From Chloroflexota bacterium (lineage in GTDB: Bacteria; Chloroflexota; Anaerolineae; JACRMK01), in NCBI GenBank assembly GCA_016235055.1, contig JACRMK010000046.1:34958-98957 (forward strand): 64,000 nt of DNA, read 5' to 3'. Under the pieces are notes generated by a model. That model did not search any database, was not told the DNA's origin, and saw only the letters and a program-made list of their open reading frames with translations. Both the position numbers and the translations under genes were made by a program. The number at the start of each line of letters is the position of its first letter. The first letter of the stretch is position 1. This document shows, piece after piece, positions 36,394-64,000 of this stretch.

Positions 36394-37308
36394 CTAGCCG
36401 GGTTTCACGACCGGCAAACCGGCCTTGGCCCACGCGGCGAAGCCGCCGGCCAGGCTTTTTACGTTGGTATAGCCCAGCAGGCGCAGCGCCATCATCGTCT
36501 GCGCACCGTTGTGCCCGATGGAACAATGGGTCACGATGGGCGCGTTTTTGTCCTGCGGGAGCTTGTCCAGGTTCTTGAATAGGTTGCGGATCGGCACGTT
36601 CAGCGCGCCGACGATCATGCCGTTGGTTTTCAGATCCTGCTCGTTGCGCACATCGAGCACGACCGGCTTGCCCGCGGCCAACTGGTCTTTGAGACCAGCC
36701 GGCGCGACGGCGTTGTAGTCGTCCGGGAGGTTGCTCAGGTACTGGTCAACCAGTGCCAGCCGGTCGGCATCGACCGCGGCGGCTTTGCCCGCCACCGGCG
36801 CCGCGATCGGTCCTTTGACCACGGGCAGATTGGCGCCCGTCCAGCCGGCAAAGCCGCCCGCCACGCTTTTCACGTTCGTGTAGCCCAGCAGGTGCAGCGC
36901 CATCATGCTCTGCGCCCCGTTGTGCCCGATCCCACAGTACACCACGATGGGCGCCGTCTTGTCCTGCGGCAGCTTGTCCAGGTTCTTGGCCAGCGTGCGG
37001 ATCGGGATGTTGACTGCCCCCTCGATGTAACCATTCGTCGCCACGTCCTGGGCGCTCCGCACGTCCACCAGGAACGGCTTGCTGCCGGCCAGTTGCTCCT
37101 GCAAGCCAGCGGGTGTGACCGCCCAATTGCTGTCGGGCAGGGTCTCGATGTAGTTCTGGACCATGGCGCGGACGTCGAGCGCGGCTTTGGTTGGCGCTTG
37201 CGTCGGCGCCGGCGCGGGCGCAAGCGGGCCGCACGCCACCGTGCCGACAAAGGCAAGCAGCGTGAGCAGCATGGCGAACAACACAGTGAACCGATATTGG
37301 TTTCTCAT
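36394..37308 (-). CDS. Tandem-rhodanese sulfurtransferase lipoprotein
   Basis: Lipobox-like TVAC; two rhodanese domains each with active-site Cys loop (YCGIGHNG, HCSIGHNG). Confidence 0.85.
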   Translation of the reverse strand: MRNQYRFTVLFAMLLTLLAFVGTVACGPLAPAPAPTQAPTKAALDVRAMVQNYIETLPDSNWAVTPAGLQEQLAGSKPFLVDVRSAQDVATNGYIEGAVNIPIRTLAKNLDKLPQDKTAPIVVYCGIGHNGAQSMMALHLLGYTNVKSVAGGFAGWTGANLPVVKGPIAAPVAGKAAAVDADRLALVDQYLSNLPDDYNAVAPAGLKDQLAAGKPVVLDVRNEQDLKTNGMIVGALNVPIRNLFKNLDKLPQDKNAPIVTHCSIGHNGAQTMMALRLLGYTNVKSLAGGFAAWAKAGLPVVKPG

Positions 37309-38202: not shown

Positions 38203-41200
38203 TCAGATCAGGCGGCGATCCAAAGCGGCGCGCATGGCAGCCGAACGAGAGGGCACGTCCAGCTTGGCGTAGACCGACCGCAGATGACCGCGCACGGTAT
38301 GCACGCTGATAACCAGCCGGTCCGCGATTTCCTTGTCGCTTAGGCCCTGAGCGAGCCAGCGCAGCACCTCCATCTCGCGCGCGGTCAGGGGTTCGCCGGG
38401 CGTTGGCGGTGCACCTTCGTCAACGGGCCCGCCATGCGACTCGGGAGAGGGGTGTTGCCGCTTGGGACCCAGTGCCTCCAGCGCGGCGCGCGCGCGCGCC
38501 GCGTCGGGCAGCGCCTGCACTTCCTCAAAACCGGCCAACGCGCGGGAAAGATAGTCGTGCGCGCGGACAGCGTCGCCGCGCGCGCGTTCGAGGTCGCCGA
38601 GGTCGGCCAACGTGCGACCCGTTTGCCAGGGGGTGCCTAATTGCTGGAACAGCGCCAGTGCCTGCTGGAAGCGTGTTTCCGCTGAGGGGTATTCGCCGGC
38701 CAGCCGGTGAGCCACGCCCCAGGCGCGATGGGCGACGGCCTGATAGAGCACATGGCCGTAGCGCATGGCCAGCGCTTCGGCGAGCGGCGCGTACCTGCGC
38801 AGCATCGGCTCGTCGGCCCGCTGCGCCGCCGTGTCGGCCATTGTGGCGAACAGATCATGGTCGCCGGGCCAGCTTCCGTTATTAAACACCTGTGGGTTGT
38901 TCGCAAATCGCTTCTGCAATGCCCCTTCCAGGTGCTGCTCCACGAGGGCGAACTCGCCCTCCGCCATTAACGGCAGCGCATGTCAGTAGTGCTGGGTGCG
39001 TCCCCACCCATCGGGCCCGACGACCGCGCCCATGATCTGGGCCGACTCGAGTCGCAGCCGGCGCGCGCGTTCGGAATCCCCGCGCATCGCATAGGCGCAC
39101 GAGAAAATGGCGGTGTGCCAGCAAGGATATTGGAACAGGTCCTGCGTGGAGCGCCGCTGCAGCGCAACCATGATTTGCTCGCTGCGGAGGACCTCGTTCC
39201 AGCGGTCGAGGCGCAGCCAAGACAGTGCCTGGCTCGCAAGTGTATGGAGGCAAAGGTCCAATGCGCGAATCTGCCCGGCCTGCGTCTGTGCTTCATCCAG
39301 ATACCGCAGCGCGTCTGTGTATTCGCCCACCGACGCCAACGCCGCGCCCAATTGCATCAAAATCCGCACACGCTCGCGCTGATCGCGGAAACGGGCATCG
39401 CGGCTCAGCGCCAACCGGCGCTGCACCAACTCTATTTGCTCGCGCAGCATGCCCTGCGCGCCATAGACCAGGGCCAGCGCGTCGAGCGCAACCGACGTGA
39501 CGACAGGGTCGTCCAGTTTTTCGGCCATATCCACGCCGGCGCGGGCGTACCGCTCGGCAGCCTCCCAGTCTGCGCTCGCTTGCCGGATCCACATGGCCGA
39601 GGAAAGGGTGGCCAGCAAGTAAACCGTTTCCACATGCGGCGGTTCCACGCTCGCTATTTCCCATGCAACGGCCAGCTGGGCCCGCGCATCGACCCGGAAG
39701 CGCTGGAAGTCGGCGCCCGCGCGCAGATTGAGCACGGCGTTCCCAAACTTGCGGCGCAAGCGAACGGCAAGCATCTTGTCACCGCTGGCCAGCGCGTCCC
39801 ACAGCGCGATCGCCTGCGCGAAGAGCGGAACCGCCAGCAAGGTGTCTCCCTGTTGGTCGTATATGTCGGCCAATTGCTCGACCACGGCGGCTTGCGTGTC
39901 CGGTTTGCGGCTGCCCTGCAGCCAGTCCAGCGCGCGGTGCAAATGCTGCGCCGCCGCGTCATACGCATGGACGGACTGAGCACGCCGCGCCGCCTTGCAG
40001 GCGTAATCGATCGCTTTGTCGCGCTCTCCGGCCGCGCTGAAGTGATAAGCCAGCGCTTCGTCGTCATCCGGATGCCGGCCCTCGATCGCCATCGCAACCT
40101 GGCGGTGAAGATGCTGGCGGCGCGGGGCCACAATATCTTCCTGCAGCGCCGACGGGATGAGCGCATGGGCAAAGACGGACAGGCTGTGCCCGCCTCGCCG
40201 CGTCTCCCGGATCAGCCCCGCGCGCCCGGCGGTCTCCAGGGCATCGATCAGCCGATCGGCCTCCAGGTCGCCCGCAATACGCAGCAGGTCAACGTCAAAT
40301 TCCCTGCCGATGATCGCCGCCAGGCGCAAGACATCCTGCACAGCAGCCGGCAGTTTCTCCACGCGCGCCCGGACCACGGCGCGCACGTTCTGCGGGATGT
40401 GGGACTGTTCCGGCGAGGGCCAGTGCCAGCGTTCTCCTGTGCGATACAGCGTGCCGTCTTCGAGCAGTCCTTTGACAACCTCCTCAATAAAGAAGGGGTT
40501 GCCTTCGGTCTGGCGATACAGGTATTCCAGAAATGCGGGCTCGACCTCGCCGCCAAAAGGCGCGGCCAGCAGCTCGCGAGCCTGCTCGAGGGTGAAGCGC
40601 GACACGCCGAGGTGCGTGCTCAGCCGCTCGCGATTGAGGTCCAGCAGCAGGTGGCCGAGGGCCGCGTTGTCGTGCAGCTCCTCCTCTCGGTAGGTCAGGA
40701 CCACCATGAGACGCATCTGGAATGCGCGGCGAGCCACGTGGCGCAGCAGGTCGAGGGTGCCTCGATCAGCCCAGTGCACGTCCTCAATAGCGAGCACGAC
40801 GGGCGTGCGCGCGGCCGGCGCAGCGCACAACTCCGCGACGCTTTCAAAGATGCGCTCTCGCTCCGAGAGCGGATCGAGCGTGGGATTTGGAGCTATGGCC
40901 GGATAGCGTGCACGCAGCGCCGGCGCGAGTGTAACGAGGTCAGCCAGGGCGAATGCGGGGAGACGCAATTCCTCGCTGGACTGCTCTAAGGCTTGCCGGA
41001 TGAACTGGGCAATGGGAGCATACGGCGTGCCGCCTTCGGCATGGCAGTCGCAGATGAACGCGCGTGCGCCGGCGCGGGACGCCCGGGAGGTGAATTCGCG
41101 CACCAGGCGCGTCTTGCCGACACCCGGCTCGCCGCTCACGAGCAGCGTATGACCTTCGCCGTCCAGCACTCGCCCGAACACGGCGTCGGCCTCGGCCAAC

Positions 41201-41253
41201 TCCCGCGCACGTCCAACAAATGGGCTGCGTAGCAGGCGTTCCAGCATTGGCAT
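38203..41253 (-). pseudogene. Large LuxR-family regulator (N-terminal AAA/NTPase, helical repeats, C-terminal LuxR HTH) interrupted by one in-frame TGA
   Basis: Walker A GEPGVGKT near N-terminus; LuxR HTH (EIADRLVISVHTVRGHLRSVYAKL) at C-terminus; ORFs 38983..41253 and 38203..38967 are in the same frame, separated by TGA at 38983-38985 plus 5 sense codons. Confidence 0.7.
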
Positions 41254-41792: not shown

Positions 41793-42485
41793 CTAGCCGC
41801 CGCTGCGGCGGCCGGGCAGTCCCGCAGAGTCTTTCGGTGCCGTGCGCATCTTTTCCATCATCCGCATGCGCACCTGCGCCAGCGCGTGCTTGAGCGGCGT
41901 CACGCGCAACAGCAGCAGTAACGCGAGCACCGTGCCGTACACCAGCGGCAGGCCGACGTTGCCTTGCAAACGCAGGAAGTCGCCTTTGACCGATAGAACG
42001 AAGTGCACGACCACCAGCGGCGCAATCAGATAGACCAGCTTGTGCAGGCGCGTCCAGCCTTTGCCAAGCCGTTTCATCCAGTAGCGGAACGACGTGACCG
42101 CCAGCGGCACCAGCAGCAGGAACGCCGTCGTGCCGATGATGATGTACCACTTGCTGCCGACGTCGGCCCAAATCAACCCGAAATCGAACGTGTAGTCCAC
42201 CCCGACGAACGCCAGCAGGTGCAGGCTGGCGTACATGAAGCCATAGAGCCCCAGCGCCTTGCGGCGCCGCAGCACCGCCTTCCAGCCGCCGATCGAGGCC
42301 AGCGGCGTGCAGGCCAGCGACAGCAGCAGGAAGGTCAGCGCGACCAGCCCCGTGCGCTGCTCGATCGCCTGGATCGGGTTGGATGTCAGGTTGCGCGCCA
42401 GCGCATCGGCAGCCAGCCACGCCAGCGGCAGCCAGCCGCCGATGTGGACGAGCGCCTGCAGCGGGTCAGGCAAGTGATGTTTCAT
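41793..42485 (-). CDS. msrQ: Protein-methionine-sulfoxide reductase heme-binding subunit MsrQ (YedZ-like)
   Basis: 230 aa from internal ATG, 6 TM helices, conserved His residues for heme b; immediately downstream of msrP. Confidence 0.85.
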   Translation of the reverse strand: MKHHLPDPLQALVHIGGWLPLAWLAADALARNLTSNPIQAIEQRTGLVALTFLLLSLACTPLASIGGWKAVLRRRKALGLYGFMYASLHLLAFVGVDYTFDFGLIWADVGSKWYIIIGTTAFLLLVPLAVTSFRYWMKRLGKGWTRLHKLVYLIAPLVVVHFVLSVKGDFLRLQGNVGLPLVYGTVLALLLLLRVTPLKHALAQVRMRMMEKMRTAPKDSAGLPGRRSGG

Positions 42486-42535
42486 GACCGGACGTAGACC
42501 TGGCGGGTTTGCAAAACCCGCGAGGTCTTTCTCGC

Positions 42536-43507
42536 TCAATAGTTCTTCCGCAAGTCCAGCCCCGCGTAGAGGCCGGCGACCTGCTCGGCATAGCCGTTGA
42601 ACGGCTGCGTCGTCCGCCGGCGCAATTCGCCGATGCGCCGCTCGCTGCCCTGCGACCAGCGCGGGTGATTGACCTCCGGATTCACATTAGCGTAGAAGCC
42701 ATATTCATTCGAGGCAATCGTGCTCCACATCGTCTTCGGCTGCGTGTCGGTTAACTCGATCTTGACGACCGCCTTGATCGACTTGAACCCGTACTTCCAC
42801 GGCACGACCAGCCGGATGCCGCCGCCGTTCGCGGCCGGTAGTTCGCCGCCGTACAGGCCGGTCGCCAGCAGCGTCAGGTCGTTCATCGCCTCGTCGATAC
42901 GCAGCCCTTCCTGGTACGGCCAGGGGTAGAACGGCGAGCGCTGGCCGGGGAAGTCGTCCGGCTTGAAGAGCGTCTCGAAGCGCACATATTTCGCGGCTGC
43001 CGTCGGTTCGACCGCCTTCAGCAGCTTCGCGAGCGGGAAGCCGACCCACGGGATGACCATGCTCCACGCTTCGACGCAGCGCAGGCGGTAGATGCGCTCC
43101 TCGGGCTGGAAGCGCTTGATCATCTCCTCGACGGCGTACTTGCCCGGCTTGCCTACCAGGCCCGACACCTGCACGTCCCACGGCGACGTCTTGAAGTTGG
43201 CGGCGCGCGGCGCAACGCCCTCTTTCTCTTCCGTGAACTCGTAGTAGTTGTTGTAGTGCGTGATGTCCTGGTACGACGTCGCCGGATCGCCCAGTTCGTC
43301 CTTGCGCGCGGACGCGCCCGGCTGGGCCGCAGGCGGCGCCGTGGCCGAAGGCGCCGGCTGCGCGTCGTTGCCTGCCAGCGGACCGCACGCCGCAAGTGCC
43401 ATGCTGCCCGCCACCACGCCGGTGGCCTTGATAAACTCGCGCCGCGAGAGGTACACCGCCTTCGGCGTGACCTCGGATTCCGCGATGCGCGGATAACGGC
43501 TCTTCAT
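42536..43507 (-). CDS. msrP: Protein-methionine-sulfoxide reductase catalytic subunit MsrP (YedY-like molybdopterin oxidoreductase)
   Basis: Twin-arginine signal (SRREFIK), sulfite-oxidase-fold motifs (ITHYNNYYEF, RLRCVEAW, GGGIRLVVPWKYGFKSIKAV). Confidence 0.9.
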   Translation of the reverse strand: MKSRYPRIAESEVTPKAVYLSRREFIKATGVVAGSMALAACGPLAGNDAQPAPSATAPPAAQPGASARKDELGDPATSYQDITHYNNYYEFTEEKEGVAPRAANFKTSPWDVQVSGLVGKPGKYAVEEMIKRFQPEERIYRLRCVEAWSMVIPWVGFPLAKLLKAVEPTAAAKYVRFETLFKPDDFPGQRSPFYPWPYQEGLRIDEAMNDLTLLATGLYGGELPAANGGGIRLVVPWKYGFKSIKAVVKIELTDTQPKTMWSTIASNEYGFYANVNPEVNHPRWSQGSERRIGELRRRTTQPFNGYAEQVAGLYAGLDLRKNY

Positions 43508-43531
43508 ACAGCTCTCCCTCCCTGGGTGTGT

Positions 43532-44083
43532 CTAAGCCGGCTCATTCAGCAATGTCACGATGGCGGCTTCCAGTTCATCATACCGCCCCTCGCCGATATG
43601 CGTGAATCGAATGCGGCCGTGCTTGTCGATCAGGTACAACGTCGGCCAGAACTGATTGCGATACGCGCGCCACGTCGCACCGTCATTGTCCTGCGCCACC
43701 GCATATGGCACGCCCAACCGGGCCACGGCATCCTTCAGATTGCCAAGGTCGGCCTCGTAGCCGAACTCCGGGAAATGGTTGCCGATGATCGTCAGCCCTT
43801 GCGGGCCGTACTGCGCATGCCAGCCCCTCAACGAGGGGATCACATTACGGCAGTTGATTCAGCCAAACGTCCACATATCGAGCAGCACGACGCGCCCGCG
43901 CAGATCGGCCAGCCGCAGCGGGCGGTCGGTGTTGAGCCAGACCGTGTTGGTCAGCTCCGGCGCCGGGCCGAGATCAACCAGTTGCGCCTTTGGCGCGCCG
44001 GCGGCTTGCGGCAACTGCGCAGCCGCCTGCGGAGCGCACGCCGCCAAACATACGAGGGCCAACAGCCAGATAGCATGTCTCAT
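43532..44083 (-). CDS. TlpA/DipZ-type thiol:disulfide oxidoreductase lipoprotein with in-frame TGA at first active-site position (candidate selenoprotein, U-x-x-C)
   Basis: ORFs 43859..44083 and 43532..43843 are in the same frame; TGA at 43859-43861 gives ...[19 protein letters not shown]..., matching the WTYTCINC redox motif of this family with Sec in place of Cys; AGGAGG 6 nt upstream of ATG; lipobox LAAC. Confidence 0.7.
43803..43850 (-). promoter_or_regulatory. Candidate SECIS-like hairpin downstream of the in-frame UGA
   Basis: mRNA CCCCUC-guu-GAGGGG hairpin about 20 nt 3' of UGA, nested in a longer GCCGUA...UACGGC pairing; not verified against a SECIS model. Confidence 0.3.
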
Positions 44084-44150
44084 GGTCGCCTCCTGAAAAC
44101 ATACTAACCGGTTGACATTACGAAAGTATTACCCGGCGCTGAATGGCCGC

Positions 44151-45383
44151 TTACGGCAGCGTAAAGCGGAACGTCGTCCCGGCACCCGGTTCGCTCGCGA
44201 CGCTGATGTCGCCGCCGTGCGCCTGCACCAGCCCGCGCGCGATCGCCAGCCCCAGCCCGGAACCGCCGGTCGCGCGACTGCGCGACTTCTCGCCGCGGTA
44301 GAACTGCTCGAACACGCGCGCCAGATCCTCGGTGCGAATCCCCTCCCCGCTGTCGCTGATGCTCACGCCAACCTGGCCGCCCTCGCGTGCCGCCTGCACG
44401 ACCACGCGCCCGCCGGCCGGCGTGTGCCGCAGGCCATTGCCGACCAGGTTGCTCAGCACGCGACCAATGCGTGCCGCGTCCATCGTGACCGGATCCACAC
44501 CGGGCGCGACAGCCCCTTCCAGCACGACGCCCTGGCGAGCCGCCATGGCGGAAAAGCTTTCCAGCGTGTCGGACACCAGGTCGGCGAGCGAATTCGGCGC
44601 GCGGTCCAGCCGCAGGCCGCCCGCGTCGATCTGGGCCATCTGGAACAGGTCGTCAATCAGCGCCGACAGCGCGCGCACGTCGCGCTGCGCGCCTGCCAGG
44701 TACCGGCGCGCCGTCTGCGGATCGTCCACCACGTCGTCGGCCAGCGCCTCGACAACCGCACGGATCGACGCGAGCGGGGTCTGCAGATCATGGCCCACCC
44801 AGGCGATCAGGTCAGCGCGGAGCCGCGCGACCTCCTGCTGGCGCTCGGCCGCTTCCTGCAACTGCGCCGCCATGCGGTTGAAGGCGCGTGCCAGCGATGC
44901 CACCTCGTCGGTGCCGTGCGCCTCGACGCGCACGCCGAGCTCGCCCCCGGCCACCGCCTGCGCCGCGGACTCGACCTGCCGGATGCGGTCGGTCACAGCG
45001 CTGGATAGAAAATATCCGAGCGCCATCGCCATACCACCGGCAAAGACCAGCAGGATCGTCGCCAGCGCCAGATCATGCGCGCTGGCGAACATCAGGCGCG
45101 CAGTCAGCCATACATTGACGAACGTCAGCACGCTGGACAGGGCATGCCCGGCCAGCAGCGCCCATCGCAGCGTCGGCGCGTACGACAGCCAACCCAGCCG
45201 GTAGGCCGCAAAAGCCGCCGCGCCGGAAATGATCGCCGTCACGCCCAGGAACGCCGTCATCAGCCCGAGCTCGGCCGGCGGCGGCTGCATGACGAGCGTA
45301 AACAGCGCCAGCGCCGCCAGGGTGGCGATCAGGACGCCGGCGGCATAGCGCGCGGCCAGTGGTATGCGAGTGATAGCGCTCAT
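44151..45383 (-). CDS. Sensor histidine kinase (HAMP-HisKA-HATPase)
   Basis: Two N-terminal TM helices; H-box EVARLRADLIAWVGHDLQTPL; N, G1, G2 boxes (GLGLAIAR, GAGTTF); ATGA overlap with response-regulator gene. Confidence 0.85.
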   Translation of the reverse strand: MSAITRIPLAARYAAGVLIATLAALALFTLVMQPPPAELGLMTAFLGVTAIISGAAAFAAYRLGWLSYAPTLRWALLAGHALSSVLTFVNVWLTARLMFASAHDLALATILLVFAGGMAMALGYFLSSAVTDRIRQVESAAQAVAGGELGVRVEAHGTDEVASLARAFNRMAAQLQEAAERQQEVARLRADLIAWVGHDLQTPLASIRAVVEALADDVVDDPQTARRYLAGAQRDVRALSALIDDLFQMAQIDAGGLRLDRAPNSLADLVSDTLESFSAMAARQGVVLEGAVAPGVDPVTMDAARIGRVLSNLVGNGLRHTPAGGRVVVQAAREGGQVGVSISDSGEGIRTEDLARVFEQFYRGEKSRSRATGGSGLGLAIARGLVQAHGGDISVASEPGAGTTFRFTLP

Positions 45384-46069
45384 GGTTCGAACTTGTACCC
45401 CACGCCCCACACGGTCAGCAGGCGGCGCGGATTGGAGGCGTCGGCCTCGATCTTTTCGCGCAGACGCCGCACGTGCACCGTCACCGTGCCTGGGTCGATG
45501 TATTCCGCGCCACCCCACACGCGCTCCAGCAGTTGATCGCGCGTGAACACCTGGCGCGGGTGTCGTGCGAACAGGTAGAGCATGTCAAACTCCCTGGCCG
45601 TGAGTATGGCCGGCGCGCCGGCAACCGTGACGCTGCGCGCACGTGGGTCCACGCACAGGTCGCCATGCTGGATGGCGCGCTCGCCGTCGGCGCCCTTGTC
45701 TCCGCCGGCGCGGCGCAGCACAGCGCGCACGCGACTGACCAGCTCTTGCGGGCTGAACGGCTTAACCATGTAGTCGTCGGCGCCCATCTCCAGTCCGGCA
45801 ATGCGGTCAATCTCCTCGCGTCGCGCGGTGAGCATGATGATCGGCACGTCGCTCTGCTCGCGCAGCCAGCGGGTGAGCGTGTAGCCGTCCAGACCCGGCA
45901 GCATCAGATCGAGCACGAGCAGAGCGGGCAGGCGCTGCGACAGCCACGTACGCGCCGACAGACCGTCCGCCGCGATGTGAACGGTGTAGCCCGAGCGCCG
46001 GAGGTATAAGCCGATCACTTCAGCGATGCTCGGTTCATCTTCAACGACAAGGATTGTTTTCTCGGACAT
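45380..46069 (-). CDS. OmpR-family response regulator (REC plus winged helix)
   Basis: ILVVEDEP, phospho-acceptor region LLVLDLMLPGLDG, C-terminal ...LTVWGVGYKF winged-helix signature. Confidence 0.9.
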   Translation of the reverse strand: MSEKTILVVEDEPSIAEVIGLYLRRSGYTVHIAADGLSARTWLSQRLPALLVLDLMLPGLDGYTLTRWLREQSDVPIIMLTARREEIDRIAGLEMGADDYMVKPFSPQELVSRVRAVLRRAGGDKGADGERAIQHGDLCVDPRARSVTVAGAPAILTAREFDMLYLFARHPRQVFTRDQLLERVWGGAEYIDPGTVTVHVRRLREKIEADASNPRRLLTVWGVGYKFEP

Positions 46070-46259
46070 CGTTCGTGCCCCGCCTCACTGAATAATACAC
46101 CGATTCCGGTCAAACTCATCACTTTGTTAAGAATCTTGTAATACTCCGGCAGGCTGCGCGTAATGAGGATGCGGTAGGATACGCACAGTTATCAATCCAC
46201 CGTGCCGACGGCTTCCGCAAGTCAGGAACCCGTACCGGCCGCTTTTCAAGGAGCAAACC

Positions 46260-47024
46260 ATGCGCAAAGAGATAGCAACCGTCGTGTTGGGATTAACAAT
46301 GATACTCGCGGCTTGCGGGCCGACCCCCACACCCGCCGCCATGATGCAAGCCGCGATGCCAACGCCTGACGCAATGATGGCCAAGCCGACGCCCGATGCG
46401 ATGATGGCCAAGCCGACGCCCGATGCCATGATGGCCAAGCCGACGCCCGACGCCATGATGGCGCGCCCAACACCCGACGCGATGATGGCGCACCCAACAC
46501 CCGACGCCATGATGGCGCACCCAACACCCGACGCGATGATGGCGCATTCGACCCCGGATGCCATGATGCAAGCCCCGGCCTGGTTTGGCGCATCGCTGAC
46601 CGATGTGCGCACCGGTCAGACGTTCTCGCTCAACGGCTTCAAAGGCAAGGTGGTGCTGGTCGAAACGATGGCGCAATGGTGTCCGAGTTGCCGCACGCAG
46701 CAGACGCAGGTGAAAGACCTGCGCGCGATGTTTGCCGGGCGCGATGATCTGGTGACGATCGCGCTCGACGTGGATCCGAATGAGCAGGCCGCCGACCTGA
46801 AGAAATACGTGCAGGCCAACGGCTTCGAAGGGTTCTACGGCATCGCGCCCGCCGCCGTGGCGCGCGAGATCGGCAATCTTTATGGCGCGCAATTCCTGAA
46901 TCCGCCGTCCACGCCGATCCTGATTGTGGACCGCCACGGCCTGGCGCATCCCCTGCCGTTCGGCATCAAGAGCGCACGCGATCTGGCGAGCGCCATCGAG
47001 CCGTACCTCAAGGACGCCATGTAA
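46260..47024 (+). CDS. TlpA/ResA-like thioredoxin-fold lipoprotein with tandem nonapeptide linker
   Basis: Lipobox ILAAC; seven to eight repeats of A[KRH]PTPDAMM; redox motif WCPSC; AAGGAG upstream. Confidence 0.85.
   Translation: MRKEIATVVLGLTMILAACGPTPTPAAMMQAAMPTPDAMMAKPTPDAMMAKPTPDAMMAKPTPDAMMARPTPDAMMAHPTPDAMMAHPTPDAMMAHSTPDAMMQAPAWFGASLTDVRTGQTFSLNGFKGKVVLVETMAQWCPSCRTQQTQVKDLRAMFAGRDDLVTIALDVDPNEQAADLKKYVQANGFEGFYGIAPAAVAREIGNLYGAQFLNPPSTPILIVDRHGLAHPLPFGIKSARDLASAIEPYLKDAM
46341..46560 (+). repeat. 27-bp tandem repeat array inside the tlpA-like gene (coding, in frame)
   Basis: GCCAAGCCGACGCCCGATGCGATGATG-type unit repeated about 8 times with third-position and K/R/H variation. Confidence 0.8.
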
Positions 47025-47088
47025 GGCTGCACGGTTGCGGGCGGACGGCGCTCCAGGGAGCGCCGTCCGCCCCGGGAGGGACAGTTCT

Positions 47089-47757
47089 ATGGAAACGATT
47101 CTGACCGCGATCGGCATTGGCCTGTTGGCGACGACCAGCCCGTGCGTGTTCCCGCTCTATCCCGGGTTTCTCGCCTATATCGGTGGGGGGCCAGTGGCGC
47201 CGAGCCGCGCCGGGCGCTACACGCTGGGCGTGTTCGTGTTGGCGGGCGTGCTGACCATGATGCTCGCACTGGGTGCGCTAATCGCGGCGCTATCCGTCTC
47301 GGTCGGCCGCGCGCTCTCCCTGCTCGTGCCGCTGGCCGACGGCCTGATCGTATTGCTGGGCGTGCTGTTGTTGCTGGGCGCCAACCCGTTCAAGGCGCTG
47401 CCGCAGGTACGTGTGCCGGCGCTGTCGCACCCCTTCGCCAACGCATTCGTCTATGGCTTGTTGTATGGACCGATCGCCCTGCCGTGCGCGGGTCCATTGC
47501 TGGTCGGCCTCTTCGCGTTTTCGCTGACCGCGACGGAGTTCGTCTCGAAACTGGGAGTCTTTCTGGGCTTCGGGTTCGGCTTCGGCTTGCCGTTGCTGGC
47601 GCTTTCGTTTCTGTCCGGCGCCGCCCAGCGCGTCATCACGCGCGCCTTCGCGCGTCATAGCCGGGCGATCAACCGCGCGAGCGGCAGCCTGTTGGTCGGC
47701 GTGGGAGCGTACGATCTCTGGTCGAACTGGACGCTGATCAGCGCGTACCTCGCCTGA
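47089..47757 (+). CDS. ccdA: Cytochrome c-type biogenesis protein CcdA (DsbD-like transmembrane electron transporter)
   Basis: 222 aa, 6 TM helices, two conserved Cys in TM1 and TM4 (TSPCVFPLYP, LPCAGP); GGGAGGG upstream; perfect 30-bp palindrome between tlpA and ccdA. Confidence 0.85.
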   Translation: METILTAIGIGLLATTSPCVFPLYPGFLAYIGGGPVAPSRAGRYTLGVFVLAGVLTMMLALGALIAALSVSVGRALSLLVPLADGLIVLLGVLLLLGANPFKALPQVRVPALSHPFANAFVYGLLYGPIALPCAGPLLVGLFAFSLTATEFVSKLGVFLGFGFGFGLPLLALSFLSGAAQRVITRAFARHSRAINRASGSLLVGVGAYDLWSNWTLISAYLA

Positions 47758-48338: not shown

Positions 48339-49283
48339 CTACCCGCCCGCGCAGATGCTCATGTTCGGATAGAACTGCTTGCAGATGCGCGGCACCGACG
48401 GGCCGAGGATCACCAGGCCCAGCGCCGGCAGCAGCATCAGCACCAGCACCACGCTCATCTTGACCGGCGCGCGCTGCGCCTCTTCCTCGGCGCGCTGGCG
48501 CCGCTGAATGCGCATCATGTCGGACTGCACGCGCAGCACCTTGGCGATATTCACACCCAATTGCTCGGCCTGCAGGATGGCCGCCACAAAGCTGGACAAC
48601 TCCGGCAGGCCGGCGCGCGCCGCCATATCGCGCATCGCTTCGGAGCGCGTCTTGCCGATCTGCACCTCCACCAGCATCTGCGCCAGCCCGCGCGCCATCT
48701 CGTCGTCCCGCTCGCGCGCGACGCGCGCCATGGCCGCCTCCAGGCCAAGTCCGGCTTCCACGCTGACCGTGATCAGGTCAATCGCATCCGGCAGCGCGCG
48801 GCGAATCAAATGCTGGCGGGCGCGAATGCGGCTGTTCAGCCAGAGCACCGGCGCATAGAATCCCAGGCCAACCACCGCCAGGAAAACCAGGATCTGGTTG
48901 GCCAGCGGCAAATTGAGCACCCCGAAAAGCAGTAAGCCGAAGCCGCCGAATAGCGCCGCCAACACGACCCGCATCCCCAGGAAATCGGCCGGCGCCCAGC
49001 GAAACGGGTTGCCCGCCATATCGAGCTTGAGCCGGATCGCATCCAGGTTGACCTGCGGCATCAGGCGCAGCAGCAGTCGCGCCAGGTTGCGCAGTCCGGG
49101 CCGGATCACACGCTCATACAGCGGCTGGTCCAGATCCACCTCGTCCAGCGAGCGGACGCGGCGCCCGTAGTTTTCGAGGCGCGCCTGCACGCGATCGCGG
49201 CGCGTAGTTACCGCCAGGCCCGCGAAGACCAGAAAGATGCCGTAGGCCAGCGACAGCGCGATAATGACAATCTCGGTGGGCAT
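48339..49283 (-). CDS. tadC: Tad pilus inner-membrane platform protein TadC (T2SS F-family)
   Basis: 314 aa, N-terminal TM, cytoplasmic GspF-like domain, two C-terminal TM helices. Confidence 0.85.
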   Translation of the reverse strand: MPTEIVIIALSLAYGIFLVFAGLAVTTRRDRVQARLENYGRRVRSLDEVDLDQPLYERVIRPGLRNLARLLLRLMPQVNLDAIRLKLDMAGNPFRWAPADFLGMRVVLAALFGGFGLLLFGVLNLPLANQILVFLAVVGLGFYAPVLWLNSRIRARQHLIRRALPDAIDLITVSVEAGLGLEAAMARVARERDDEMARGLAQMLVEVQIGKTRSEAMRDMAARAGLPELSSFVAAILQAEQLGVNIAKVLRVQSDMMRIQRRQRAEEEAQRAPVKMSVVLVLMLLPALGLVILGPSVPRICKQFYPNMSICAGG

Positions 49284-49292
49284 GGGGTTGCG

Positions 49293-50267
49293 TCAAACCT
49301 CGATACTGATAATCCGGCGGATGACCAGCATGGCCGAGCCGACCAGCACCAGCACTGTGAAGAAGATCAGTTGCCCGCACAGCGAGTTGAAGAACTGTCC
49401 CATGTACGCGGGGCTGATGACAAAGAGCAGCACGGTCAGCAGGAACGGCATGGCGCCGACAAAATAGCCGGATGCCTGCTGCTGCGTGGTCAGGATGCGC
49501 ACCTCACCCTTGATGCGGATGCGCTCGCGGATCGTGTGGTTGATCGTGTCGAGAATGAGCGAGAGGTTGCCGCCGACCTCGTGCTGGATCAGCAGCGCGG
49601 TGACCAGCAGGTCGAGGTCTTCATTGCGGATGCGATTGCGCATGTTTGAGATCGCCTGATCGAACGCCACGCCAAGGCCGATCTCGCGCACCACCCGGCC
49701 GAACTCCTCCGAGATCGGCGGCTGCAGTTCCCGCGACAACAACTCCATGGACTGCAAGAGGCTGTAGCCGGACCGCAGCGAGGTGGACATCAGGCTGATC
49801 GCGTCGGGCAGTTGCCCGCTGAAGGCGCTGCGCCGCTGGTACTGGCGGAACACCAGGTACCAGCGCGGGCCCAGGTAGCCCAGGATGGCGCACGGCAGCG
49901 CCACATACCACTGCTTGAAGATGAGGAGTCCCAGCGCAAACGCGAGCAGCACGCCGGTGACCATCACGACGATGAACTCGCCGGGCGTCAGCTTCAGGTC
50001 GGCCTGCGCCAGCTCCAGCTCCAGCGTGTGGCCGCGACCGCGGCGCGTCAACTGGCGGTCGATGTCGCGCGTCAGGCGCCCGCGCGCGCGCGCGCCGCCC
50101 GTCACGTGCCCGCCGACGACGCTGGCGCGCATCGCATAGTGTTCCATGCGGTCGTCCACGTCGTACGGGTTGCGCGATAGCGCGCGCGCCAGCCCGGCAA
50201 AGAACAGGACGATCCCCAGCATGGCGAGGCCGCCGACGACCAGCGCCGCAACGGGTAGCCCGCCCAT
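49293..50267 (-). CDS. tadB: Tad pilus inner-membrane platform protein TadB (T2SS F-family)
   Basis: 324 aa with the same topology; start codon directly abuts cpaE-like stop. Confidence 0.85.
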   Translation of the reverse strand: MGGLPVAALVVGGLAMLGIVLFFAGLARALSRNPYDVDDRMEHYAMRASVVGGHVTGGARARGRLTRDIDRQLTRRGRGHTLELELAQADLKLTPGEFIVVMVTGVLLAFALGLLIFKQWYVALPCAILGYLGPRWYLVFRQYQRRSAFSGQLPDAISLMSTSLRSGYSLLQSMELLSRELQPPISEEFGRVVREIGLGVAFDQAISNMRNRIRNEDLDLLVTALLIQHEVGGNLSLILDTINHTIRERIRIKGEVRILTTQQQASGYFVGAMPFLLTVLLFVISPAYMGQFFNSLCGQLIFFTVLVLVGSAMLVIRRIISIEV

Positions 50268-51536
50268 CTAGCGTGCTCCGAACAGCCCGTGCTTCGGCCG
50301 GGAACCGGCCGCGCGCAACTCGGGCGCCATGTGCTGCGCCAGGTGTAACACCACCTGGCTGATCGGCGTTTTGGGACTGCTGATGACGAACGGCAGGCCG
50401 GACTGCACCGCCTCGACCGCCGTCTTGTCGTCGCGCTCGATCACGGCGACGATCGGCTGGCCGATGGCAGATTCGATCTCCTTGGGCGACACGCGTCCTT
50501 TGGGGTTATGCCGGTTCAGCACCAGCATCATCTTATTCGCCGGGTATTTGAGCAGTTCCGCAACCTCCAGGAACAGCCGCATGTTCTTGACGACATGCAC
50601 CTCGCTGGTGGCGACCAGCACGATCCGGTCGGCATGGTCGAGGATCGTCAGCATCGTCTCGTCGAGCGCGCTGAATGTGTCCACGATCACATAGTCGAAC
50701 TGGTCGCGCAGCGCGTTCAACACCTGGTCAACGGCATGCGGCGTCAGCGTGTCGGCAAGCTCCGGCGACGCCGGCGCCAGCAGGACCTTAACGCCGCTGT
50801 GGTGCGCGGCCAGCACGTCGGGCAACGCCGCCAGGTCCACCTTGCCGTTGGACGAGCAAATATCGGTGATCGTGCGCTGGGAGCGCAGGTTCATGTACAC
50901 GCCCACGTCGCCGTAGCGCAGGCTGGCATCCATCAGCGCGACCCGTTCGATCCCGCCGGTTTGCAGCGCAATGGCCAGGTTAACCGCCAGCGTGGTGCGC
51001 CCGATGCCGCCGTTGGCGCTGTACACGGCAATGATTCGACCGTGCCGCGACGGCGGTGGCGGTGGCGGCGGAGCGATCGCGGCCAGGCGCGGCGCCGAGC
51101 CGGGTATCACGCTGCCGGGCGACAGCGGCATAGGGCCAGCCGACGGCGCAGCGTACGCGGTGCGCCGGATCCCTTCCAGCAGTTCTGCCGACTCAAACGG
51201 CCGGATGATAAACTCGCGCGCGCCAGCCAGCAGTACGCGCTGCAGATATTCCGCGCTCGCCAGCGACTTGGGAATCACCATCAAGATGCGCGTGGCGGGC
51301 AAGCGCTCGGCAATCGCCTGGCTAATCTGCAGACCATCGGCGCCCTGGCCGCCCACCACCGCCACCAGCACGACGTCGGGCATCTTCTGCTCGGCCGCAA
51401 ACAACGCGTCGTGCAGCGAGGTCGCCGTACCCACAATCTGGATGGTAGACTCAAGGGACAGCAACTGCTCAAGCGCAGACAGCGTGTCCCGCTCGGCGTC
51501 GACTAACAGGAGTCGGATCGGTTGCGTTGAGTTCAT
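50268..51536 (-). CDS. cpaE: CpaE/TadZ-like pilus-assembly ATPase (ParA/MinD fold) with N-terminal receiver-like domain
   Basis: Deviant Walker A VYSANGGIGRTT; N-terminal about 120-aa REC-like domain (IRLLLVDAE...); Pro-rich linker. Confidence 0.85.
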   Translation of the reverse strand: MNSTQPIRLLLVDAERDTLSALEQLLSLESTIQIVGTATSLHDALFAAEQKMPDVVLVAVVGGQGADGLQISQAIAERLPATRILMVIPKSLASAEYLQRVLLAGAREFIIRPFESAELLEGIRRTAYAAPSAGPMPLSPGSVIPGSAPRLAAIAPPPPPPPSRHGRIIAVYSANGGIGRTTLAVNLAIALQTGGIERVALMDASLRYGDVGVYMNLRSQRTITDICSSNGKVDLAALPDVLAAHHSGVKVLLAPASPELADTLTPHAVDQVLNALRDQFDYVIVDTFSALDETMLTILDHADRIVLVATSEVHVVKNMRLFLEVAELLKYPANKMMLVLNRHNPKGRVSPKEIESAIGQPIVAVIERDDKTAVEAVQSGLPFVISSPKTPISQVVLHLAQHMAPELRAAGSRPKHGLFGAR

Positions 51537-51560
51537 AAAGAGCTATCGGACCGGTTGACG

Positions 51561-51953
51561 CTAGCGCGGCTTGCCCAATTGCGCCGCCACAAAACGGACA
51601 ATGCTCAGCGCGTATTGATAATATTCCCCGGATTGCTCGATCGTCGGCGCCGCTTCAATATCAGCCGGGTAGACCGATTGCGTCGTAAACGGCACGAGCG
51701 CCGCCACCGGCCGCTCAAACTGGCGGAACGCCGCATCGACCGAGACACACAGCCCCAGCAGGTAGGTCAGGTTCTGGCGCAGCAAAAAGTGCTTGGCGCT
51801 CGCCACCAGATATGCCTTCAGGCTCTTTTCGATCGCCTGCTGGCAATGAAAGGCGTGGATCGCCGTCGGGAAGTCGTCGACGTGCTGCAGAATCTCCGCG
51901 GTTCTAAGGTCGGACTGCGCATAGCGCAGCCAGTCTTGAGCATTTTCAGCCAC
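51561..51953 (-). CDS. HEPN domain protein, orphan (no adjacent nucleotidyltransferase gene)
   Basis: 130 aa, GTG start; helix pattern HCQQAIEKSLKAYL similar to the HEPN at 28107; sits between cpaB and cpaE-like genes. Confidence 0.7.
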   Translation of the reverse strand: MAENAQDWLRYAQSDLRTAEILQHVDDFPTAIHAFHCQQAIEKSLKAYLVASAKHFLLRQNLTYLLGLCVSVDAAFRQFERPVAALVPFTTQSVYPADIEAAPTIEQSGEYYQYALSIVRFVAAQLGKPR

Positions 51954-52004
51954 GGGTGCGTCTATCCTTTGTGTAGTGTGATGCAGAGCGTCCGTCGCGG
52001 CCGC

Positions 52005-52778
52005 TCACTTGACGAGCATGCCGTTGAAGCCGAAGCGAATATCCACGTATTCCACGACGATCGGCTGGGTCCGGAAGCGCTGGTGGTCGCCCGCCGCGCG
52101 CAGGACGAGATGCAGCCCCGATGACGTCTCGCGCAGGAACTTGAGCGTCAGCGCGTCCTGCGGCGTCAGCAGGAAGGTCACGTACGACTGCGCGCCCGCC
52201 TCAGCGCTCGCCGACCAGAGGCCGACCTTGAGCACCTCGACGTCCTGCAGCGCGATCTGGGTGATCTGCCGCCGGGTGACGCCGGTCGTGATGTTGCCGG
52301 TCGAGGCGACATCGTAGGACGCCAGCACGTCCACGTGGTCGCCTTCGCGCAGCGCCGATGCTACGCCGCTGACGGCGTCGATCGCGTATGCCATCGCCAC
52401 CAGGCCGTTCGGGACAATGTATGAGGCCTGGCTGCCGGCGCCGCGGCGCGTCTCCTCGATCTCTTTGTCGATCAGCATGCCGGGCAGGATGACCTGCCCC
52501 TCGGCGATCTGCGTCGCCGCCAGCCGGTTGTACGCGTCGACCGGATCGGTCAGCGCGCCGCGCGGCACGGAGGCGGTTGGCCAGTCGGCCAGCCCGATCG
52601 TATCGGTTGTCACCGTCGCGCGCGGCGCAATCGCCCGGCGCGCCACGACGACTTTGGTCGTCTGCACTTCCACCTGCGCCCGATTGCGATCGGGGTTGAG
52701 AAAGACAAATGACGCGATGAGTGCGAGGCCGCCGAGCAGAATGCCCAGCAGGATCAGAACGCGCCCGCTTCGTTGCAT
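52005..52778 (-). CDS. cpaB: Flp pilus assembly protein CpaB (RcpC-like)
   Basis: N-terminal TM anchor, SAF-like and beta-rich periplasmic domains typical of CpaB. Confidence 0.85.
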   Translation of the reverse strand: MQRSGRVLILLGILLGGLALIASFVFLNPDRNRAQVEVQTTKVVVARRAIAPRATVTTDTIGLADWPTASVPRGALTDPVDAYNRLAATQIAEGQVILPGMLIDKEIEETRRGAGSQASYIVPNGLVAMAYAIDAVSGVASALREGDHVDVLASYDVASTGNITTGVTRRQITQIALQDVEVLKVGLWSASAEAGAQSYVTFLLTPQDALTLKFLRETSSGLHLVLRAAGDHQRFRTQPIVVEYVDIRFGFNGMLVK

Positions 52779-52838
52779 ACGATTCTCCGAATGGCCGGCG
52801 AAAGTCGCTTGCGCAGCGACGCTGCTGCGCGCCGCCGG

Positions 52839-53855
52839 CTAGTTGGTCAGATTGACGCTCTTAACGCCCGACACACCACCACAGTTGGTTATACAGATCT
52901 CGCCCGGCATGATGTAATGCTGGAAATAGCCCATTACCGTCTTCGGATTGCCGGTCATGTTTACCACGCTTACCACGAGGCGCGCGAAGCCCACGACGTG
53001 GTACATCTTATGGCCCTGCTCCGAATTCGCTGTGTCGTAGAATAATACCGTCACCGACATCCCCTGATGCGCTACGATGGCGTCGCGAATGTTCTGCGTA
53101 TTGCCCAGGCCGGTGTCGCCGTCCAGGCAATCGCCGATGGACAGCATCGTCTTCGATGTCGCCTGATTCTGATCGCACTCGCCGCCTGAATACAGATAGG
53201 TCATGTACGGGCTGGCGGACTGACCGTTCAGCCAATTCAGCGTGTCGGTCGAATTGTTGTTGCCGCCATTAAAGTCGACCCACCCGAACGTGCCCGGCTG
53301 GTAGTTGGTGCCGTTGTCGTTGAACAGCGTATACACCTGACCATAGGACAATGGCGAGGTGATCGACGGCGTGTGCACAACCATCGGCCACAGCGGCGCA
53401 TTGGTCATTCCGATCGGCCCGGCGCACGCCGTGGCTTGCGCGGACGTGTTCATCGCGTTGAATCCGACGATGCCCATGAAGTAGGTGCCAAAGGTCACGT
53501 AGGTTGTGACCCGCACGCAGTTGTCGCTGGCCGACGGGTTGGTCGTTTTGACATCGTTGTTGCTGGGCAGGAAGACACCTTCCCAGTTGTCGGCGCGATT
53601 GCCGAAACCGCCGCCGCCCACCGTGTACGACTGAACCTGTCCTTCGATAATCGAGCGCGCCATCGCGTTACCCAGTGCATACGCGCCTGCCATGGAACCC
53701 GAATCGGCGGCGTTCTGCATCATGCGCCGCCGCTCGAAAACCTGCGCACCATCCAGCGCCAGACCCACGAACGCGACCAGCGCAACCGCCATCAGCGCCA
53801 CCAGCACAACGGCTTGCCCGCGCCGGCGACGGTCCTTCAAATGTAGGCCGTTCAT
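52839..53855 (-). CDS. TadG-like pilus-assembly protein (Tad N-terminal domain plus large extracellular domain)
   Basis: N-terminus RRGQAVVLVALMAVALVAFVGLALDGAQV matches the Tad/TadG motif; Gly/Asn/Thr-rich remainder. Confidence 0.7.
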   Translation of the reverse strand: MNGLHLKDRRRRGQAVVLVALMAVALVAFVGLALDGAQVFERRRMMQNAADSGSMAGAYALGNAMARSIIEGQVQSYTVGGGGFGNRADNWEGVFLPSNNDVKTTNPSASDNCVRVTTYVTFGTYFMGIVGFNAMNTSAQATACAGPIGMTNAPLWPMVVHTPSITSPLSYGQVYTLFNDNGTNYQPGTFGWVDFNGGNNNSTDTLNWLNGQSASPYMTYLYSGGECDQNQATSKTMLSIGDCLDGDTGLGNTQNIRDAIVAHQGMSVTVLFYDTANSEQGHKMYHVVGFARLVVSVVNMTGNPKTVMGYFQHYIMPGEICITNCGGVSGVKSVNLTN

Positions 53856-62733: not shown

Positions 62734-64000
62734 TTACGCCGGTCGCCAGCAGAGGTCCGGCTTGCGCGCTGCCGTCGCCTCGTCCAGCCGCGAGACCGGC
62801 GTGGTGTGCGGCGCAGAGCGCACGAGCTCGGGGTTCTCCTCGGCCTCGCGCGCGATCTGCAGCATCACCTCGCAGAAGCGGTCGATCGTCTCCTTGCTCT
62901 CCGTCTCGGTCGGCTCGACCATCAGCGCTTCCTCGACGACCAGCGGGAAGTAGACCGTCGGCGGGTGAATGCCGAAGTCGATCAGCCGCTTGGCGATGTC
63001 GAGCGTGCGCACGTTGTTCTTCGCCTGGCGCTTGCCGGAAAAGACGACCTCGTGGTAGCAGGTGCGGTCGAACGGCAGGTCGTACGCGCCCTTGAGGCGC
63101 TCCTTGATGTAGTTCGCGTTCAGCACGGCGATCTGGCTCACCTCGCGCAGGCCGTCCTCGCCGTGTGAGCGGATGTACGCGTAGCCGCGCACCAGGTTGG
63201 CGAAGTTGCCGTGGAACGCGCGCACCCGGCCGATCGACAGCGGCCGGTCGTTGTCGAGCGTGTAGCGGCCATCCTTGAATGCGACGACCGGCGCCGGCAG
63301 GAACGGCGCCAGCGCCTTGGAAACGCTTGTGCCGCACGCGCCCGGCCCGCCGCCGCCGTGCGGCACGCCGAACGTCTTGTGCAGGTTGTAGTGCAGGATG
63401 TCGAAGCCGACCTCGCCCGGCTTGCAGATGCCGAGCAGGGCGTTCATGTTCGCGCCGTCGCCGTACACCAGGCCGCCCGCCGCGTGCACCAGTCGATTGA
63501 TCTGCTCGATGTGCTGGTCGAAAAGGCCAACCGTCGACGGATTGGTGATCATCATGCCCGCGACCGTGTCGTCGAGCAGCGCCTTCAGCGCGTCCACGTC
63601 CACGTTGCCGTGGGCGTCCGCCTTGACGGTGACGACGCTGTAGCCGACCATCGCGGCGGTCGCCGGGTTGGTGCCGTGCGAGCTATCCGGCACGATAATT
63701 TTGGTGCGCTTCGTGTCGCCGCGCGACTTGTGATAGCCGTGGATCATCAGCACGCCGGTCAGTTCGCCGTGCGCGCCTGCCGCCGGCTGCAGCGTCGCGC
63801 CCGCGTGCCCTGCGATCTCGGCGAGCTGCTCCTGCAGTTCGTACATCATGCGCAGCGCGCCCTGCACGGTGCTCTCAGCCTGGTACGGGTGAATGCGCGC
63901 AAAGCCCGCCTGCCCGGCGATGACGTCGTTGATCTTCGGGTTGTACTTCATCGTGCACGAGCCGAGCGGATAGAACACGGTATCCACGCTGAAGTTCTTG
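62734..64000 (-). CDS. gcvPB: Glycine dehydrogenase (decarboxylating) subunit 2, GcvPB; 5' end lies beyond window
   Basis: PLP-enzyme motifs incl. [13 protein letters not shown] and LHKTF (Lys for PLP); reading frame stays open to the window edge. Confidence 0.9.

Follow-up and report, generated by a model that had tools for sequence, protein, structure and literature searches.

In a 64,000-nucleotide stretch of a Chloroflexota genome (class Anaerolineae; GenBank assembly GCA_016235055.1, contig JACRMK010000046.1, positions 34,958 to 98,957 of the forward strand; hereafter the window), two adjacent open reading frames (ORFs) that are annotated as separate genes are most probably one. We propose that the TGA between them (38983-38985, minus strand) is a selenocysteine (Sec) codon at residue 757, and that 38203-41253 encodes a single 1016-residue STAND-type regulator made up of an AAA_16 NTPase, a TPR sensor and a LuxR-type helix-turn-helix (HTH). 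We put the probability of this at about 0.85. All of the evidence is comparative, and the incorporation of selenium is a prediction drawn from it.

The upstream ORF (38983-41253) encodes 756 amino acids and ends at the TGA, while the downstream ORF runs from an ATG at 38967-38965 to 38203 and encodes 254, starting 15 nt after the TGA. Both lie on the minus strand and in one frame throughout ('...GRTQHY*HALPLMAEGEF...'), so that decoding of the TGA would yield 1016 codons closed by a final TGA at 38203-38205, with coding constraint that spans the junction. The original prediction of two same-frame ORFs split by a lone TGA was thus borne out. A P-loop NTPase domain with the Walker A motif GEPGVGKT occupies residues 11-185 (40699-41223; Pfam AAA_16, PF13191, E = 1.1e-28). 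It is followed by a helical TPR sensor region (38446-40386) that is unbroken across the TGA, with TPR_12 matches on either side of it (E = 2.4e-11 for the downstream one), and by a GerE/LuxR HTH DNA-binding domain (38227-38391; PF00196, E = 2.7e-18) whose connection to the ATPase depends on decoding of the TGA. In the NCBI annotation the locus is split into MBI5878156.1 ('AAA family ATPase') and MBI5878155.1 ('LuxR family transcriptional regulator'). The latter has 246 amino acids and starts not at the ATG at 38967 but at a GTG (38941-38943, Val9 of the 254-residue ORF), directly after a hairpin described below, which leaves the annotated product without the conserved MAEGEFAL. A single locus proves nothing here: chance alone puts one pair of neighbouring ORFs in three into a common frame, and 24 of the 52 ORFs in the window end in TGA (TAG 18, TAA 10).

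Related loci were gathered via the downstream TPR protein. From metagenomes and GTDB genomes 127 loci were retrieved, with 115 distinct junctions; the GTDB titles among them include Anaerolineales, Anaerolineae, Chloroflexia, Roseiflexaceae, Caldilineaceae, Litorilinea and Promineifilaceae. All 115 Chloroflexota junctions have TGA, a 15-nt spacer and the same frame, in the pattern '...W.R..HY TGA + 5 codons + xAEGEF'. As a control we took the true stop of the downstream part in the same loci, which was TGA in 58 cases, TAA in 31 and TAG in 27, with a T as the next base in 34 of 116; after the junction TGA the next base was C in 68 loci, A in 41, G in 6 and T in none. The closest relatives behave in the same way, since three orthologous contigs (92, 66 and 60% identity) keep the TGA, the 15-nt spacer, the frame and the downstream TPR-LuxR ORF. 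Among the top 103 homologues of the 756-residue module, about 97 have kinase, adenylate cyclase, SARP/BTAD or XRE domains at the N-terminus, and all of them end at '...W.R..HY'. Beyond the TGA, too, the sequence forms a family, represented by hundreds of TPR 'proteins' of about 160 amino acids that were called as separate genes. One homologue (P0039, 1411 amino acids) leaves the frame as it crosses the junction, and its end, '...IAPGAWLIGWPGS...', is a frame-shifted 'AHRAWGVAHRLAG'; it is a frameshift or gene-calling artefact and illustrates how the junction confuses annotation.

Because this layout is kept across orthologues and family, the TGA is neither a recent nonsense mutation nor a sequencing error, two of the explanations in the original prediction. 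The 115 distinct loci that share this TGA come from many samples and assemblers, and both halves of the gene are under purifying selection, which disposes of a pseudogene and of an assembly error. Reassignment of the genetic code fails as well, TGA, TAG and TAA all being ordinary stops in the window and in the related loci. All that speaks for this group of explanations is the bare in-frame TGA in one metagenome-assembled genome, and we consider their joint probability vanishingly small.

The 15-nt spacer (HALPL in the window, 38968-38982) evolves as coding sequence. The ratio of nonsynonymous to synonymous change per site (pN/pS) in the spacer is 0.50 in frame 0, against 0.48 in the upstream and 0.49 in the downstream flank, and it is 1.04 and 2.0 in the other frames. 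Pro at codon +4 and Leu at codon +5 are conserved in the family while their codons vary freely. Candidate start codons are often missing: in only 25 of the 115 loci does ATG, GTG or TTG precede the conserved Pro-Leu, at codons +1 to +3 (none in 90), and 13 loci have none of the three in codons +1 to +7, the next canonical start lying 8 to 41 codons downstream. At the 'Met' of MAEGEF (Met763 in the window, 38965-38967), where an annotator would conventionally begin the downstream ORF, 79 of the 115 loci have ATG; the others encode Leu, Val, Gln, Lys, Ala, Thr or Ser, in part by codons that are not starts (CAG, AAG, GCN, ACN). No Shine-Dalgarno-like run was seen in the spacer. Where codon +1 encodes Leu it is CTN 56 times and TTR never, compared with 27.6% TTR elsewhere. 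These patterns show that translation enters the spacer from upstream and that its codons belong to the protein.

The predicted structure is consistent with this. In an AlphaFold2 model of a natural fused homologue (P0241; pLDDT, the predicted local distance difference test score, 81.6), the protein forms a continuous helical-repeat TPR solenoid in which the residue equivalent to the stop is predicted to lie in the middle of a helix (residues 98-114). The 'EGE' that follows would form the next turn, and the position equivalent to the family's invariant Cys (see below) falls two helices earlier. Foldseek searches with this model returned generic TPR domains. A gene boundary in the middle of a helix is, on this model, implausible. 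The closest orthologues do show a conserved stop followed by a downstream ORF with its own start, the arrangement that the original prediction had named as the sign of two separate genes. This sign is formally present and we judge it misleading, because the spacer is coding in frame 0, start codons are often missing and the TGA falls mid-helix.

Downstream of the TGA lies a hairpin whose sequence is more constrained than the protein requires. In the window it reads GAGGGCG-AGUU-CGCCCUC (38944-38961, loop 38951-38954) and is embedded in the codons for EGEFAL; its 7-bp stem begins 21 nt after the UGA (21-22 nt in the family), the gap from UGA to loop is 28 nt, and its minimum free energy (MFE) is -14.4 kcal/mol. 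The family consensus is (G)AGGGCG-AGUU-CGCCYU(C), and the AGUU loop is invariant among UGA junctions. The EGEFAL codons (+8 to +13) are fixed, with GAG in 98/100, GGC in 108/113, GAG in 115/115 and TTC in 114/115, followed by GCC or GCT only and CTN only, whereas elsewhere the same loci use GAA, GGN and GCN freely. Synonymous change per site (pS) is 0.27 at the hairpin and 0.6-0.8 elsewhere. Where the stem does vary, pairing is preserved: the alignment contains compensatory changes (GGT with ACC/ACT, U-A; AGC with GCT, A-U; GGG with CCC, G-C) and at least 30 G-U wobbles. Overall 95.8% of the pair cells were paired, with double changes at 4 pairs, a result reached by none of 500 shuffles (0/500), and slid controls gave 42-67%. 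We also considered a palindrome acting at the DNA level, such as a protein-binding site, and rejected it, the tolerated variation consisting of G-U wobbles that pair only on the sense-strand RNA.

The consensus of Zhang and Gladyshev for the bacterial selenocysteine insertion sequence (bSECIS), as summarised in PMC13188914, describes a small apical loop with G-U at 16-37 nt from the UGA. In that account the criteria are a loop of 4 nt whose second base is G and whose third is U, a suitable stem, the distance from UGA to loop, and an MFE of at most -7.5. The junction hairpin agrees with all four (AGUU loop, stem of 6-7 bp, 28 nt, -14.4 kcal/mol). The hairpin is real as an RNA structure, and from the established mechanism we infer that it acts as a bacterial SECIS.

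If the UGA encodes Sec, homologues may be expected to carry Cys in its place. Through an exhaustive HMMER search covering 1.84 billion representative proteins we obtained three independent fused homologues that have Cys at the UGA position, and in each of them the hairpin or its G-U loop has decayed. In P0360 (locus L133) the junction codon is TGC and the loop AGUU has become AACU; in P0366 (L134) the codon is TGT and the hairpin is destroyed; in P0304 the motif after the Cys reads GGEDAL. As regards the alignment of orthologues suggested in the original prediction, the closest keep the TGA, and a sense codon for Cys appears in these three homologues.

A second site points in the same direction. 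A SECIS-style scan of the gathered DNA revealed another in-frame TGA, 46-47 codons upstream of the junction TGA, in 15 loci (L022, L042, L045, L050, L053, L102, L105, L110, L117, L120, L121, L122, L125, L130 and L133). It falls on a Cys that is otherwise invariant in the family, '..VG.T[C/U]F.VAL..', which in the window is Cys711 (TGC, 39121-39123), 46 codons before the TGA. All of these loci have a hairpin of their own at this site, 26 nt downstream: in 14 of them fixed codons form CCACGC-GUU-GCGUGG, and the fifteenth (L133) has the compensatory variant CCGCGC-GUU-GCGCGG (joint consensus CCRCGC-GUU-GCGYGG). About 95 members with Cys have identical amino acids there, encoded by varied codons and without the upstream-site hairpin. 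Members with both TGA codons would be double selenoproteins, and L133 has the Sec codon at the upstream site and Cys at the junction. At the upstream and junction positions, in that order, the majority, with the window among them, have (C,U), and (U,U), (U,C), (C,C) and (L,W/V) occur as well. The pattern is one of classical Sec/Cys interchange, here at two coupled positions.

The window itself contains a canonical UxxC-type selenoprotein gene. On the minus strand at 43532-44083 it encodes a ResA/TlpA-like redoxin with a lipoprotein-type signal peptide and the motif 'WTFG-U-INC', in which an in-frame TGA (43859-43861) occupies the CxxC position; the AhpC-TSA (2.8e-11) and Redoxin (6.5e-8) matches extend across the U. 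The SECIS-style scan placed its SECIS, CCCCUC-GUU-GAGGGG, at 43824-43838, 20 nt downstream of the TGA, and the loop carries G-U-U as that of the junction hairpin does. ORF callers split this gene in two. Because the window carries a canonical redoxin selenoprotein gene with its SECIS, the organism is predicted to decode Sec.

Two further ways of reading the junction do without Sec. The original prediction had raised translational readthrough that yields full-length and HTH-less forms. In spirit this was right, since the stop is most likely decoded; the evidence, however, favours Sec insertion directed by a SECIS over leaky readthrough. In the leaky case a near-cognate tRNA such as tRNA-Trp, stimulated by the hairpin, would place an ordinary amino acid at residue 757 and produce short and long isoforms. 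The fused homologue P0004 does have TGG (Trp) at the site, and the base after the UGA is only ever C, A or G, which in E. coli work is a weak termination context. Yet the signature to be expected, Trp at the site without Sec features, is not what we found: Trp or Val marks one lineage, three homologues have Cys, and SECIS features and the Sec/Cys interchange are present. That one lineage has also lost the partner Cys and looks degenerate. A hairpin at 21-22 nt from the UGA would be too far for the mRNA entry channel and is right for a SECIS, a hairpin of identical style marks the second site, where UGA alternates with an invariant Cys, and our literature search turned up no bacterial case of hairpin-stimulated readthrough. 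We prefer Sec to leaky readthrough because of the Cys-for-TGA homologues with their decayed hairpins, the second Sec/Cys site and the canonical selenoprotein in the window, and regard readthrough by a near-cognate tRNA as quite unlikely.

Alternatively, the locus could be two genes as annotated, with the ATPase/TPR protein ending at the TGA, the TPR-LuxR protein started through termination-reinitiation at the ATG at 38967 (or at the GTG chosen by PGAP), and the hairpin helping to position the ribosome. NCBI annotates it so, gene callers do likewise in hundreds of contigs, and 79 of 115 loci have the ATG at +6, which lies 7 nt ahead of the hairpin. Such an arrangement would have to accommodate an invariable frame and a constant spacer that evolves as coding sequence, a stop that is never TAA or TAG, 13 loci lacking any start in codons +1 to +7 and 90 lacking one before the Pro-Leu, a spacer free of Shine-Dalgarno-like runs, a break that is predicted to fall mid-helix, and the existence of fused Cys forms. 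We consider it very unlikely as the whole explanation; given the frequent ATG at +6, reinitiation may coexist as a side route, and Met763 may serve as a secondary initiation site.

Several observations weigh against a Sec codon and belong beside its support. Cys forms are rare, three having been found against hundreds of UGA forms, and one fused lineage has Trp (P0004, TGG) or Val (P0241) instead of Cys at the junction. It is the only lineage with a non-Cys residue there; it has lost the upstream Cys as well, and P0004 has lost the hairpin too, while P0241 retains most of it. The ATG five codons past the UGA is kept in 69% of loci, and separate initiation of the downstream part may also occur. 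The junction loop has 4 nt (AGUU), compared with a GUU triloop in the other two SECIS types. An Rfam search gave zero SECIS matches at the junction; it likewise gave zero for the redoxin SECIS, which is canonical and lies in the window too, so the models are insensitive to this type of SECIS and the result carries little weight. Finally, the 64-kb window showed none of selA, selB, selC and selD: Pfam scans of 36 more of its ORFs did not reveal selA, selB or selD, and ARAGORN found no tRNA-Sec in it. A 92-nt tRNA-Ala(GGC) that ARAGORN called at 63283-63374 (minus strand) lies inside a GcvP-like coding region with a glycine dehydrogenase motif, has no Rfam tRNA match and is probably a false positive.

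If the UGA at 38983-38985 is a Sec codon, the following mechanism would apply, modelled on the established bacterial one. The hairpin 21-22 nt downstream would act as the SECIS; SelB carrying Sec-tRNA(Sec) would bind the G-U of its apical loop and deliver Sec to the UGA in competition with RF2. Termination by RF2 would release a 756-residue protein without a DNA-binding domain, and the supply of selenium might in this way gate synthesis of the HTH-bearing form. Within the TPR sensor, Sec757 and Cys711 could form a selenenylsulfide that serves as a redox or ligand switch and controls the NTPase and the output. Extended to the whole Chloroflexota STAND family, with its many paralogues per genome and its kinase, cyclase, SARP, XRE and LuxR outputs, the proposal is that a Sec/Cys or Sec/Sec pair in the TPR sensor acts as a selenium-dependent redox or ligand switch, and that in the LuxR branch Sec insertion decides whether the protein gains its DNA-binding domain, so that selenium supply and redox state would be wired into transcription. 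We put this wider proposal forward tentatively and at somewhat under even odds.

The genes beside the regulator fit a redox theme. An envelope redox gene cluster (41793-47757) comprises, besides the Sec-containing redoxin, an MsrQ-like Ferric_reduct protein (41793-42539), an MsrP-like Oxidored_molyb protein with a twin-arginine (TAT) signal (42536-43507), a HAMP/HisKA histidine kinase (44151-45518), a second redoxin (46260-47024) and a DsbD_TM/CcdA-like protein (46924-47757). The regulator's immediate downstream neighbour is a tandem-rhodanese protein (36394-37308, minus strand), and a tandem rhodanese of 54% identity adjoins a family member in another locus (L094:2137-2967); the rhodanese neighbours may have a link to sulfur or selenium trafficking. 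Synteny with redox genes is weak across the loci, only L131 and L094 sharing neighbours with the window. In L131 an in-frame TGA ('FYLSYT-U-SVC') interrupts an AhpC/redoxin gene (838-1413, minus strand) that also has a hairpin, UCAACUC-GGU-GAGUUGG; the gene adjoins DsbD/CcdA and further AhpC-TSA genes, and the same contig carries the fused Trp variant P0004. The SECIS-style scan listed further candidate Sec genes on the plus strand (L095:4322, L108:4604 and L108:3824), each with a G-rich-loop hairpin; the contexts are '...KVAT-U-GTC...' in two loci and '...WSLC-U-MEAEG...' in one. Farther along the window, a Tad/Flp-pilus-like cluster (48339-53855, minus strand; two T2SSF proteins, a response-regulator/ParA-like ATPase, RcpC/CpaB and TadE/G-like proteins) is unrelated.

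To our knowledge, nearly all known selenoproteins are oxidoreductases. If the Sec codon is real, Sec-bearing signalling ATPases and transcription regulators would extend selenium biology to sensing and gene control, and an abundant environmental phylum would gain a widespread selenoprotein family. A systematic error of annotation would be put right as well, since hundreds of these genes are divided in public databases between an "AAA family ATPase" entry and a small "TPR protein" or "LuxR regulator" entry. The family exposes a blind spot of selenoprotein discovery pipelines that need plentiful Cys homologues, and the residues that occur naturally at the two sites offer ready-made variants for probing the proposed switch. 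A May 2026 catalogue of 119 prokaryotic selenoprotein families contains no STAND, AAA_16, TPR, LuxR, SARP, kinase or cyclase family, our literature search found no description of such a Sec-containing STAND/LuxR family, and NCBIfam has no model for the regulator family. The recoding mechanism is known; the regulator is most likely the first to be recognised in a large family of signalling selenoproteins of Chloroflexota, new as a family and as a functional class.

Known bacterial selenoprotein genes such as E. coli fdhF likewise combine an in-frame UGA with a short hairpin that has G-U in its loop, Cys homologues, downstream amino acids constrained by the hairpin, and truncation as the alternative outcome. 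Unlike them, the regulator is a STAND NTPase and transcription regulator rather than an oxidoreductase, and its Sec is predicted to sit within a helix of the TPR sensor; at the main site UGA forms are far more numerous than Cys forms, and the hairpin hardly varies between paralogues with only about 40% amino-acid identity. The GrdA (glycine reductase selenoprotein A) family is reported to lack Cys homologues, and the main site of the regulator family similarly has very few Cys forms. As in two-Sec prokaryotic selenoproteins, some members of the family have two UGA codons, each with its own SECIS, but these are 47 residues apart in helical repeats and do not form CxxU or UxxC.

In architecture the regulator, if its UGA is decoded, resembles the LAL/MalT-type LuxR-family STAND proteins, with the same order of NTPase, helical TPR sensor and C-terminal LuxR/GerE HTH. 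Uninterrupted GerE relatives of about 1000 amino acids exist at 33-35% identity (P0104, P0105, P0108, P0118 and P0120), and the architecture matches two of them, P0108 and P0120. It is not MalT itself: the HTH alone matches the MalT equivalog NF003420, at 39 bits against a cutoff of 537. Its best NCBIfam match is TIGR03903 (TOMM kinase/cyclase fusion), with 199 bits against a cutoff of 705, and only the NTPase-helical core aligns. The regulator also departs from the LAL/MalT type in that its output domain lies beyond the UGA, while the nearest relatives of its NTPase-TPR core have N-terminal kinase, cyclase, SARP or XRE outputs. By analogy the proposed logic is that of OxyR-like thiol redox regulators, in which a reactive chalcogen pair in the sensor switches a transcription factor, and the neighbours of the regulator are envelope redox-repair genes (MsrP/MsrQ-like proteins, redoxins, CcdA). 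There is no homology to OxyR, however; the regulator would have Sec in place of one Cys and is built on a STAND/TPR scaffold, and its switch is a proposal only.

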